Sequence record: LT603033
Direction: 5' to 3' (one strand)
Length of the DNA stretch: 64,000 nt
Origin: Escherichia phage vB_Eco_slurp01
Shown: piece after piece, positions 15,714 to 24,466 of the stretch
How the letters are laid out: each line of letters starts with the position of its first letter
How positions within the stretch are numbered: position 1 is the stretch's first letter
Position numbers and translations under genes: made by a program
The notes under the pieces: model-generated
The model's database searches: none
The model's input: the letters and a program-made list of their open reading frames with translations, nothing else
Told to the model about the DNA's origin: nothing

Positions 15714-15742
15714 TTGACTTATTTTGTCAGTACTGGCATAAT
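15714..15742 (+). promoter_or_regulatory. Promoter driving a non-coding stretch
   Basis: TTGACT N17 CATAAT; no ORF over 25 aa follows. Confidence 0.5.
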
Positions 15743-15744
15743 GT

Positions 15745-15925
15745 ATTCATTGGCAGATAAGCCGTAGCCCATAGGGTGCGGGAGTGTATCTATAGAAAAA
15801 GTAGTTTATTACAGTTACAATTGTGCACCCGGTGGGTTAGCTGTTGTCATGGGGTATATTATGCCAGTACTGGATAGTGCTGTCAATACCTTTTTACTAT
15901 TCAGTACTGAAAACTATTTTTAAAA
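15745..15925 (+). ncRNA. Candidate small non-coding RNA
   Basis: Promoter-driven, no ORF; contains inverted copies of the CCCAYNGGGTGC motif that could pair. Confidence 0.3.
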
Positions 15926-17287: not shown

Positions 17288-17292
17288 CAACG

Positions 17293-17322
17293 CGGGGAGA
17301 TAATAACTCCCCGTTACTTTTT
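17293..17322 (+). terminator. Intrinsic terminator
   Basis: CGGGGAG-ATAATAA-CTCCCCG then TTACTTTTTC. Confidence 0.7.
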
Positions 17323-17455
17323 CAGTACTGAATCATTTAATAGACGGATCTCGGCACCCTGTGGGTTAGTGACTGTATCGTCTTTATGTAGTAATTATGC
17401 CAGTACTGGATGCACTTGTCAACAACTATTTTTCAAATACTTTTTATTAAAATAC

Positions 17456-22530: not shown

Positions 22531-22710
22531 ATGGCTATCATCGCAAAAACTGAAATCATCGGCCTGGATTCTATCATCATGACGTTTGAAGATCAAAAAG
22601 GTATGTATGTGGTTTCCTATGGTGATTATGTTCGGGAGTATGAAACGGTAGACGAAGCCTTTGAAAGTTACATTCGCCAGGTGAATAAAGCATACGACGA
22701 CTACCGCTAA
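22531..22710 (+). CDS. Hypothetical small protein (59 aa)
   Basis: Own translation MAIIAKTEIIGLDSIIMTFEDQKG...; AAGGAATT RBS. Confidence 0.5.
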   Translation: MAIIAKTEIIGLDSIIMTFEDQKGMYVVSYGDYVREYETVDEAFESYIRQVNKAYDDYR

Positions 22711-22737
22711 AATATATTACCAGTACTATTAAAGATA

Positions 22738-22765
22738 TTGACAACGTTTGATAGTACTGTATAAT
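22738..22765 (+). promoter_or_regulatory. Early promoter
   Basis: TTGACA N16 TATAAT. Confidence 0.7.
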
Positions 22766-22808
22766 AAGTTTTATCAACAGTAGTTAACTTAACCTAAGAG
22801 AGAAACAA

Positions 22809-22913
22809 AATGATCGCACTGGATTCATTCATCGACGCAGTACTGGCAAAAACTGGCGAGGATCTGACCGCAGAACAATACGCAATGATCGAGCAATGCC
22901 AGCAAGACGGTAA
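22809..22913 (+). CDS. Short ORF (34 aa) with a more protein-like continuation in the +1 frame to 22953; possible frameshifted gene
   Basis: ATG after AAGAGAGA RBS; GGG run at 22859-22861 shifts frame. Confidence 0.3.
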   Translation, partial: NDRTGFIHRRSTGKNWRGSDRRTIRNDRAMPARR

Positions 22914-22959
22914 ATCGGTGAAAGATACTGTTAAGATTATCCGCAAGATGTAAGATTAT

Positions 22960-22990
22960 AGCCCACTGGTTAACGCTGGTGGGCTTTAAT
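22960..22990 (+). terminator. Putative terminator
   Basis: AGCCCAC...GTGGGCT stem then T-rich; stem includes a Chi octamer. Confidence 0.5.
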
Positions 22991-23058
22991 TCATTACCCT
23001 ATACAATGCCAGTACTAAACCGTTTATCTCCTTAGAATGCGTTACAGGACGTTTGACA

Positions 23059-23256
23059 ATGATTAGCATGAAATCAGTACAAAAACAAATAGAAACATTA
23101 TCAAAAATTAAACGTAAACAGTACTCGTTAGAATATACAATCAATGGTAACTATCATCTAATGAAAGAGAATAATTTCATTGTCATTGATGAATCATTGC
23201 AAATCATTAGTATAGTACTGAAAGCATTAATCAATGACAGAAAAAAATTAAAATAA
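23059..23256 (+). CDS. Hypothetical protein (66 aa)
   Basis: ORF track (TTG start at 23053) trimmed to first ATG; no clear promoter. Confidence 0.45.
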   Translation: MISMKSVQKQIETLSKIKRKQYSLEYTINGNYHLMKENNFIVIDESLQIISIVLKALINDRKKLK

Positions 23257-23260
23257 TATA

Positions 23261-23289
23261 TTGACAATATCCTCCAGTACTGGCATAAT
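23261..23289 (+). promoter_or_regulatory. Promoter followed by ~290-bp non-coding leader
   Basis: TTGACA N17 CATAAT. Confidence 0.65.
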
Positions 23290-23587
23290 ACTTACATCAA
23301 GACGAGAACGTCACTAACCCATAGGGTGCACAAATGTAACTGTATAATATTGATCAAAAAATGATCTGATCAATACTTGATCAATTTGCGTAAAGTAGTA
23401 TAATTCTATGCAGTTGGTTAGACGAAAGGTTATGATTAGTAGTGCAAGTGTATAAAAATTTTCATGGTGTATCGTTTCGCACATATGGGGATGAATATGT
23501 GGTATCATGTGGATTGGAAAAAGTAAGAACAAGTAATATTATTGTCGCATTACAGTACTATAGTATTTTTATAATGAGGTTAAAATA
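23290..23587 (+). ncRNA. Candidate non-coding RNA or long leader with clustered TGATCA/GATC
   Basis: No plus-strand ORF; TTGATCAA x3 + GATCTGATCAA within 23340-23395. Confidence 0.3.
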
Positions 23588-23845
23588 ATGGCTGTAGGAT
23601 TCGCGAAAGATGGGGCCGAACAAGACGAGATTAACGCAGTGATTCAGGCCGCCGTTAACCACGCTAGAAAGCAAATTAACGCACAAATAGAATCACTGAT
23701 ACATTGCCTCGACTGCGGCGATATAATCCCTGAGAAACGACGCCAGGCCGTTAAGGGGTGTAAGTACTGCATAACTTGCCAGGAGGATCATGATAGTACT
23801 TTTAAACGTCCCCCGCGTAATTGTTGGCATAGATCTATGAGATAA
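23588..23845 (+). CDS. TraR/DksA-family C4 zinc-finger protein (85 aa)
   Basis: CLDCGDIIPEKRRQAVKGCKYC fits C-x2-C-x3-I-P-x2-R...C-x2-C signature. Confidence 0.6.
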   Translation: MAVGFAKDGAEQDEINAVIQAAVNHARKQINAQIESLIHCLDCGDIIPEKRRQAVKGCKYCITCQEDHDSTFKRPPRNCWHRSMR

Positions 23846-23851
23846 AAAGTA

Positions 23852-23880
23852 TTGACAGTACTATCCAGTAGTGTTATAGT
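23852..23880 (+). promoter_or_regulatory. Early promoter
   Basis: TTGACA N17 TATAGT; hairpin GGGGAA-ACATC-TTCCCC at 23892-23908. Confidence 0.65.
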
Positions 23881-23926
23881 ACTTACATCAAGGGGAAACA
23901 TCTTCCCCTACTAAGAGGAAATGAAA

Positions 23927-24115
23927 ATGGAAAACTTATCAAGTATTTTAGTACAAGATGATTTCGGTAATCCTGGAAGTGCTATCATTGTTCGGGGTAA
24001 TAAAGCAACATTTGTTATTGCTGGTGGACCTGTACAGCGTAGCATTAAAAATAATGCTGTTACCATTAATAATGTACGCTATCGCTTAGATAAAGAATTG
24101 ATTCATAAACTGTAA
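23927..24115 (+). CDS. Hypothetical early protein (62 aa)
   Basis: ORF 23921..24115; second ATG has better RBS spacing. Confidence 0.6.
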   Translation: MENLSSILVQDDFGNPGSAIIVRGNKATFVIAGGPVQRSIKNNAVTINNVRYRLDKELIHKL

Positions 24116-24142
24116 TATTAATTTAATAGAGGATAACAATAA

Positions 24143-24466
24143 ATGTACATTCATACTACTATCACAAAGGAAGTCCGTTGCCAGTTCGAAAGTATTCCGG
24201 GCGTATGTTTCATCACTGGTACGTTTTCCCCTGGTGATCGTGATAATCCAGTACTGTTACAATTACGCCATCCATCATGGGATAAAGCATTTGATCTACC
24301 GTTGAATGAATTCGCAACTACTGCTGAAAAGTACATTAAAAATATTCGCGAGAATGATCGACTATTCATTAATGCTTTTAGTGATTCCGCGTTAAGCGAG
24401 ATCCACGGCGTATTGGTTGCAATCATGGAATCAATGGAGAAAACTAAATTCAAACAAGGTGAATAA
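24143..24466 (+). CDS. Hypothetical protein (107 aa)
   Basis: ORF track; GAGGATAA RBS. Confidence 0.65.
   Translation: MYIHTTITKEVRCQFESIPGVCFITGTFSPGDRDNPVLLQLRHPSWDKAFDLPLNEFATTAEKYIKNIRENDRLFINAFSDSALSEIHGVLVAIMESMEKTKFKQGE

Follow-up and report, generated by a model that had tools for sequence, protein, structure and literature searches.

The window analysed here, i.e. the whole 64,000-nucleotide stretch of DNA, comes from an Asteriusvirus jumbo coliphage of the PBECO4/121Q type. Its segment 23000-23900 matches 34 phage records at 88-99% identity (megablast), all of them Asteriusvirus-type jumbo coliphages of ~350 kb, PBECO4, 121Q, SP27 and BF17 included. The surrounding region is densely packed with very small plus-strand genes, each with sigma70-type promoters. 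In assemblies with resolved ends the locus is found ~11-12 kb from the left genome end and, since the direct terminal repeat is annotated at 1-21525 in the vB_Ec-M-J record, it is inside this long repeat, which in Sharanji measures 20,668 bp (PMC11895373). For 23290-23587, the original prediction was of a promoter-driven stretch with no plus-strand ORF ahead of a TraR-like gene. The stretch is instead a self-contained accessory early-gene cassette with two predicted promoters (Table 1), in which a conserved 48-aa ORF leaves only ~23290-23441 as non-coding DNA.

Table 1. Coordinates in the window of the features of the cassette and its surroundings
Feature	Position	Strand	Basis
Left direct-repeat copy TTAAAATAAT, 10 bp	23248-23257	+	sequence; alignment with cassette-less genomes
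Accessory cassette, 332 bp	23258-23589	+	megablast and genome alignments
Predicted outer promoter P_a, TTGACA-17-CATAAT, upstream TG, spacer CCAGTACTGG	23261-23289	+	consensus match, family comparison
Promoter-proximal conserved block, core CCCATAGGGTGC (23318-23329)	23290-23348	+	alignment, window copies
GATC cluster, two 11-bp-spaced pairs	23350-23384	.	sequence, site counts
Cluster site 1, TTGATCAA (GATC at 23352)	23350-23357		
Cluster site 2, TGATCT (GATC at 23363)	23362-23367		
Cluster site 3, TGATCAA (GATC at 23368)	23367-23373		
Cluster site 4, TTGATCAA (GATC at 23379)	23377-23384		
Predicted inner promoter P_b, TTGATC (23377-23382)-16-TATAAT (23399-23404)	23377-23404	+	consensus match, sister-cassette comparison
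Probable ribosome-binding site AAAGG, 12 nt before GTG	23425-23429	+	sequence, alignment
Small gene, 48 aa, GTG start, phrog_38664	23442-23588	+	ORF list, profile match, dN/dS
Right direct-repeat copy TTAAAATAAT, 10 bp	23580-23589	+	sequence; alignment
TraR/DksA-type C4 zinc-finger gene, 85 aa	23588-23845	+	PF01258 match
Nine CCCAYNGGGTGC copies	13616, 15768, 15825, 17354, 21654, 23318, 25257, 28530, 30793	-, +, -, -, +, +, +, +, +	

The cassette is present at full length in 26 related records, a 27th (EC.P1) being truncated where its circular record begins. Sharanji, phAPEC6 and ECO103 lack it, their upstream 65-aa ORF (23059-23256 in the window) ending exactly at the start of the TraR/DksA-like gene, and a G17-type genome gives the same shortened match as these cassette-less phages (megablast match only). 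In approximately nine Asteriusvirus genomes the match is limited to the first 86 bp of the cassette and is located at other loci; these 86 bp are the sole part of it that recurs elsewhere, as promoter cassettes. The stop codon of the 65-aa ORF is inside the left copy of TTAAAATAAT, a repeat that provides the junction (TAATG) between a stop codon and the start of the TraR-like gene whether or not the cassette is there. Because it is a functional junction, the repeat is silent on insertion versus deletion. Loss in the Sharanji group is nevertheless more likely than gain, an inference that we draw from the deep divergence between the two alleles of the cassette and from its presence in a phage that infects another host genus. 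Other origins were considered. A transposable or miniature mobile element can be rejected since the cassette has no terminal inverted repeats and is bounded by the 10-bp direct repeat alone, which, as a functional junction, is uninformative as a target-site duplication; the cassette stretch has no match among 5,426 E. coli genomes that would point to a host-derived origin. Two further indels were noted in this neighbourhood. Directly downstream of the TraR-like gene, at 23846-23851, a GNAT acetyltransferase gene of 357 bp precedes the next promoter in 121Q, SHEFM2K, JP4, Turkey5 and others but is missing from the window, PBECO4 and BF17, while the homologous cassette of Erwinia phage Hallingskeid has an insertion directly upstream, an HNH endonuclease gene (L011 1014-1442), where the metagenomic relatives L014, L016 and L018 have none.

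The small gene, annotated as gp253 in PBECO4 and gp293 in 121Q, matches phrog_38664 from end to end (E=7.4e-36, positions 1-48 of 48). Its two alleles differ at 35% of residues with the frame intact, the other two frames holding stops, and judged by the substitution rates between them (dS 0.83, dN 0.21, dN/dS 0.25) it is a real gene under purifying selection. Its initiation looks weak, because translation would start at GTG (TTG in the 121Q allele) at a distance of 12 nt from AAAGG in both alleles. The downstream gene bears out the prediction of a TraR-like product, which scores 41.2 bits against PF01258 zf-dskA_traR (cut-off 24.9; E=1.6e-10). As its ATG overlaps the stop of the small gene, it is probably translationally coupled to it, and GAGG at 23576-23579, just before the right TTAAAATAAT copy, would be its candidate ribosome-binding site.

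A profile search of 1.8 billion representative proteins returned 17 matches to the small protein at E<=0.001 (one per 50%-identity cluster), 15 of which are 47-74 aa long, the other two being long multi-stretch matches. Homologues are found in Hallingskeid (E = 5.8e-7 against phrog_38664), in Pectobacterium phage CBB and in several metagenomic contigs. An AlphaFold2 model (pLDDT 89.4) has four strands and a C-terminal helix, a predicted fold that most resembles AP2-type DNA-binding domains, although AP2/ERF-type domains, which also occur in phage HNH endonucleases and as N-terminal domains of integrases, have three strands rather than four. Foldseek searches with this model gave no significant match in the PDB and, in BFVD, a large number of small phage proteins that share the fold and are uncharacterised; at the sequence level, no Pfam family (AP2 included) was matched at E<=1. 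That the small gene might be a tandem paralogue of the upstream 65-aa ORF was rejected (hhalign probability 0.2%), the two sharing the final TTAAAATAAT junction only, and the phrog_9374 gene at 22531-22710 shows a weak relation to it (probability 28%).

Two predicted promoters and a promoter-proximal element

The cassette carries two candidate promoters, identified by their consensus matches, from which we infer activity. P_a is of sigma70 type with 11/12 hexamer matches, confirming on sequence grounds the promoter already proposed at 23261, and has the spacer typical of early promoters in this phage; transcription is predicted to start near 23296 (the start being taken as the seventh base after the -10 hexamer, here and for all promoter-relative positions below). 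P_b was missed in the first reading of the sequence, inside what was supposed to be non-coding DNA. It has 10/12 matches, a predicted start near 23411 and a -35 hexamer that includes the fourth GATC of the cluster. At least four sister cassettes elsewhere in the window (21654, 25257, 28530 and, on the minus strand, 13616) are built alike, with an outer promoter that is followed by a conserved element, then by AT-rich spacer DNA and, directly ahead of the gene, by an inner promoter, and P_b aligns with these inner promoters. Where these sister cassettes have AGTACT boxes (CAGTACTGAAAA, AAAAGTACTTGC), the cassette studied here has TGATCA boxes in the equivalent place.

Several window-wide observations were made along the way. 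AGTACT occurs 264 times in the window versus ~21 expected from base composition (~12-fold), richly at 8-32 kb and 48-64 kb and hardly at all at 32-36 kb and 40-48 kb; it sits in the early-promoter spacer (CCAGTACTGgcATAAT) and as boxes between tandem promoters, and there are 151 copies in a 50-kb segment of Sharanji (L023, 290-340 kb). GCGC is absent both from the window (49.5 expected) and from this Sharanji segment, and CCATGG, AGGCCT and CGGCCG are likewise missing from the window, suggesting strong restriction-site avoidance. At ~25190-25225, 28465-28500 and 30725-30760, the hairpin GGGATTGACTCCGGTCAGTCCC followed by TTTGCTATTAT has the look of an intrinsic terminator, yet TTGACT in its stem is a -35 hexamer and TATTAT in its T-tail a -10, which is why a combined terminator and promoter is predicted.

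The block that follows P_a is identical in both Asteriusvirus alleles. Its hallmark, CCCAYNGGGTGC followed by TGTATCTAT, has nine copies in the window versus 0.31 expected, every one of them ~25 nt 3' of a predicted sigma70 promoter, and the element is also found in Klebsiella phage Muenster, in CBB and in the Hallingskeid group. This promoter-proximal element, a family that covers the first ~50 transcribed bases from P_a, is real, and a nut-like site, the core of a small RNA or a protein-binding site are all possible. At 15715-15890, two strong early-type promoters, each followed by the element, are placed face to face ~130 bp apart, so that their transcripts would overlap convergently.

The idea that the region might be a regulatory leader or a small RNA, put forward when it was first noted, bears on both this element and the GATC cluster. 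The transcript from P_a would then act at the RNA level, its palindromes folding into hairpins (GAUCA-N5-UGAUC and UGAUCAA-N3-UUGAUCA) that would work by attenuation of transcription, by making the RNA more stable or by hiding its ribosome-binding site. The 125-nt leader does fold better than shuffled controls (z = -2.7), and equivalent hairpins can be drawn in all three lineages discussed below, although adjacent palindromes unavoidably form hairpins, which are therefore no evidence for a role as RNA. Furthermore, two sister copies of the P_a unit, at 17354(-) in the window and in Muenster, end in hairpin terminators after ~100 nt, suggesting short stand-alone transcripts. However, Rfam gave no match for the stretch at the gathering threshold or at E<=1 and ARAGORN no tRNA, leaving no tRNA, tmRNA or known RNA family, and no terminator was predicted over 22700-24200. 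Across 31 distinct copies of the element, RNAalifold leaves a 4-bp hairpin as the sole conserved structure, most copies folding no better than shuffles, so that an extended RNA structure was discarded. In addition, the second GATC pair shifts relative to the transcript in the 121Q and Hallingskeid alleles, yet stays on the promoter. With half of the stretch being a gene, we found no evidence for 23290-23587 as a structured RNA, and an RNA-level function for the cluster seems improbable. The two terminated units (17290-17425 on the minus strand, and 1500-1645 in the Muenster contig L012) are a separate matter: each consists of a consensus promoter, the conserved element, CAGTACTGAAAA and a GC-rich hairpin terminator, has no ORF and, from this layout, is a candidate small RNA gene of ~100 nt.

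Paired GATC sites over the predicted inner promoter

The cluster of four GATC that had first drawn attention to the locus spans 31 bp, with successive spacings of 11, 5 and 11 bp, and nowhere else in the 64 kb do four GATC fall within 60 bp. TGATCA, counted four times in the original prediction, occurs three times (23351, 23367 and 23378), the fourth site being TGATCT (23362). GATC is depleted in the window (123 observed, 223 expected under a Markov model), and random placement of 123 sites brought four into that span in 48/20,000 trials (p ~0.002). An 11-bp spacing puts each pair on one face of the helix, and the site centres are at -57.5/-46.5 and -41.5/-30.5 from the predicted start of P_b.

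Between PBECO4-type and 121Q-type genomes, 23349-23540 is a sharply bounded diverged block, with 60-78% identity as against 93-100% in its flanks, a pattern that, with a dS of 0.83 in the small gene, suggests ancient alleles exchanged through recombination. Both alleles have nonetheless kept GATCAA sites in 11-bp pairs, four sites in the window and five in 121Q. A third lineage consists of Hallingskeid and six metagenomic relatives, which have the promoter, the CCCAYNGGGTGC element, two GATC pairs and the homologous small gene in the same order (in detail, a CCCACAGGGTGCA element, TTGATCAA-N4-TGATCAA, a TTGACT -35, the palindrome GATCAATAATTGATC across the -10, then the gene). In all three lineages the pair spacing is exactly 11 bp and the distal pair is centred at -57.5/-46.5 (+/- 1 bp) from the predicted start of P_b. 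The remaining sites lie over the predicted core promoter at lineage-specific positions (-41.5/-30.5 in the window; -30.5, -1.5 and +9.5 in 121Q; -14.5/-3.5 in the Hallingskeid group), several of them having been placed independently by the three lineages. The sequence around GATC is also biased: among 40 cluster sites, many of which are orthologous and hence not 40 independent observations, T predominates at -1 (90%), as does A at +4 (85%) and at +5 (82%), and a TTGATC or GATCAA arm is found in 97.5%, versus 23% of the 119 other GATC in the window.

The small-gene homologue of CBB has a plain predicted promoter and no GATC cluster. Conversely, cassette-less Sharanji has an intergenic TTGATCA-N4-TTGATC pair with the 11-bp spacing at ~303.9 kb (L023 13880-13905), right after a hairpin terminator and before a minus-strand gene, which is the one further pair found in a search for paired TTGATC that covered 114 of ~350 kb. 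In IMG/VR, TGATCAA-N4-TGATCAA is found mostly in unrelated contigs, none of which has the CCCAYNGGGTGC element among the matches listed. Three unrelated viral contigs there (L118, L065 and L129) contain iteron-like arrays of TTGATCAA, e.g. five tandem AAAAATTGATCAATCTGTAC after a terminator, indicating that the palindrome recurs in phage non-coding DNA.

That number, pairing, helical phasing and promoter-relative position have been kept despite sequence turnover makes an operator array controlling P_b the likeliest reading of the cluster, to which we give an even chance, and supports the original view of the cluster as a regulatory feature, since paired GATC are kept at the same distance from P_b in three diverged lineages. 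Could these sites instead have no function of their own, having arisen when a palindromic, AT-rich motif slipped or was locally duplicated in a fast-evolving and dispensable intergenic segment? The cassette is indeed dispensable, being absent from ~9 related genomes, no other part of the locus is as diverged as this segment, the CBB homologue does without the cluster and, among the IMG/VR matches listed, the TGATCAA pair is common in viral contigs generally. Neutral drift would nevertheless be hard to reconcile with the persistence of number, pairing, 11-bp spacing and promoter position across alleles with a dS of ~0.8 and in a phage of another host genus, or with the retention of these sites although GATC is depleted elsewhere, and we see little chance that the array is functionless.

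Possible readers of the palindromes

Operators for what, then? The invariably present GATC core and the spacing of the pairs by one helical turn point to Dam or SeqA. For SeqA to bind, at least two GATC in the hemimethylated state have to lie roughly one turn from each other, and a GATC inside a promoter hexamer is found in promoters that respond to Dam, IS10 pIN among them. The T1 and VT2 Dam enzymes, of the PF05869 family, are GATC-specific. A member of this family is encoded in the genus (Sharanji gp542, E=7e-32), where a Dam-family methylase gene has been noted before (PMC11895373, PMC7247149). The possession of a Dam-family methylase by the genus makes Dam/SeqA sensitivity of the cluster plausible, as far as its sequence goes. 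In its pure form, this alternative is a timing switch without any sequence-specific factor, in which host SeqA would bind the hemimethylated 11-bp pairs after replication and shut off P_b or, in a variant, methylation of the GATC in the -35 hexamer would directly alter recognition by sigma70. Much fits. Every site is built around an invariant GATC, the two members of a pair always have exactly 11 bp between their centres and face the same side of the helix in each lineage, and GATC is depleted in the rest of the window. With its spacings of 11, 5 and 11 bp, the cluster has the two or more GATC ~1-3 turns apart on one face that characterise SeqA/Dam clusters, and a GATC is in or against the -35 or -10 hexamer at the predicted promoter, as in Dam-sensitive sigma70 promoters; across lineages, GATC overlaps the predicted -35 hexamer, the flanks of the -10 or the start site. 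What does not fit is the strong conservation of the TTGATCAA flanks (the 97.5% versus 23% arm frequency given above), which in SeqA/Dam clusters are free to vary, and we know of no need of Dam or SeqA for flanks beyond GATC. Methylation and SeqA by themselves are an explanation to be taken seriously, but an unlikely one.

The conserved flanks argue instead for sequence-specific recognition by a protein that reads the whole palindrome. The two accounts are compatible, and we favour a model with a binder that is both methylation-sensitive and sequence-specific. While the anatomy of the locus, its conservation, the coding status of the small gene and the indel are solidly shown by the sequences, the activity of the promoters, the binding of a protein, its sensitivity to methylation and the identity of the binder belong to the model. 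According to it, the strong outer P_a would fire through the conserved promoter-proximal element, while the weaker inner P_b would drive the 48-aa gene and the overlapping TraR/DksA-like gene. A palindrome-reading protein would bind the TTGATCAA pairs cooperatively and set the activity of P_b, and it could also block read-through from P_a. Since every site carries a Dam target, binding would probably be methylation-sensitive, which could tell injected from newly replicated DNA. The most economical candidate for the binder is the small product of the cassette itself, with its predicted AP2-like fold, which would thus regulate the promoter of its own gene, another phage factor or host SeqA being possible as well. 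The Sharanji pair, found in a genome without the cassette, argues against the cassette protein as the only binder, and the CBB homologue without GATC sites weakens its candidacy. A more specific proposal is that tiny AP2-like phage proteins are regulators reading short palindromes, of which the cassette member would repress its own promoter via methylation-dependent TTGATCAA pairs; as it stands, this proposal is doubtful.

Comparison with known systems helps to place the cluster. Clustered promoter GATC and palindromic operators are well-known kinds of element. As in oriC, the dnaA promoter, IS10 pIN and P1 cre, GATC are about one turn apart, in or against promoter hexamers, and host and phage could each supply a Dam-type methylase, but the cluster differs from these in consisting of 8-bp palindromes with conserved flanks, in two pairs at what are, by prediction, fixed positions relative to a promoter. 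The switches operated by OxyR (Mu mom, agn43, P22 gtr), Lrp (pap) and Fur (sci1) likewise have several GATC within regulator sites beside a promoter, and binding and methylation would compete in the way proposed here, although by inspection no OxyR, Lrp or Fur consensus fits the cluster. A wider comparison by eye found no fit to the consensus motifs of FNR, CRP, IHF, Fur, OxyR or H-NS. A timing switch is likelier than phase variation because the element is hosted by a lytic jumbo phage. Autoregulated phage repressor/operator modules offer another parallel, with palindromes one turn apart over a promoter just upstream of the gene for a small protein with a putative DNA-binding fold.

A known site with the hexamer itself is P1 pac, whose seven TGATCA/G copies all include a Dam site (PMC10028697). 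It raises the question of whether the cluster might serve a DNA transaction, as a P1-pac-like packaging signal, an origin or an iteron gated by Dam methylation. The likeness goes beyond the hexamer core, which in both cases is arranged in two groups, to sequence-specific recognition and a Dam target in each repeat (PMC10028697), and the TTGATCAA arrays in other viral contigs are iteron-like. However, close relatives are viable without the cassette, the locus is ~12 kb inside a ~21 kb terminal repeat and not at a terminus, and the sites are positioned relative to a predicted promoter. P1 pac is an essential site near the packaging start, in the gene for the terminase small subunit, whereas the cluster is dispensable, not at a genome end, lies over a predicted promoter rather than in a terminase gene and has four sites instead of seven. 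A role in packaging or replication is thus very improbable. Nevertheless, PacA, which reads the TGATCA/G hexamers of P1 pac, is a parallel for a protein that would read the whole palindrome here (PMC10028697), i.e. for the methylation-sensitive operator array that we favour.

A literature search turned up no description of these motifs for Asteriusvirus or Rak2-like phages. To judge from that search, what is new is the combination of paired TTGATCAA in fixed register with the inner one of two predicted promoters in tandem, a dispensable cassette in the terminal repeat and a tiny protein with a predicted AP2-like fold. For the question of how the hundreds of small early genes of Rak2-like/Asteriusvirus jumbo phages are timed, the cassette is a compact, naturally dispensable test case with two predicted promoters, a palindrome array and a candidate 48-aa regulator, and nature offers the variants, in the form of cassette-less phages and phages with the diverged allele. 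Even if neither methylation sensitivity of the palindromes nor their binding by the small protein holds, a corrected annotation remains, with a gene and a predicted promoter in place of an assumed non-coding leader. If tiny AP2-like proteins do act in this way, the cassette would have a replication-coupled off-switch for an accessory TraR/DksA-type host-takeover gene in a jumbo phage, as one instance of an undescribed regulatory grammar of the early region in Rak2-like phages, other parts of which would be the nine-copy CCCAYNGGGTGC element (as a nut-like or small-RNA mark) and the AGTACT boxes. Should the palindromes prove methylation-sensitive, this would be a clear case of a lytic phage using Dam sites to distinguish injected from replicated DNA and, should the small protein bind them, a function would be at hand for many phage proteins of 45-75 aa, a large class that lacks annotation.
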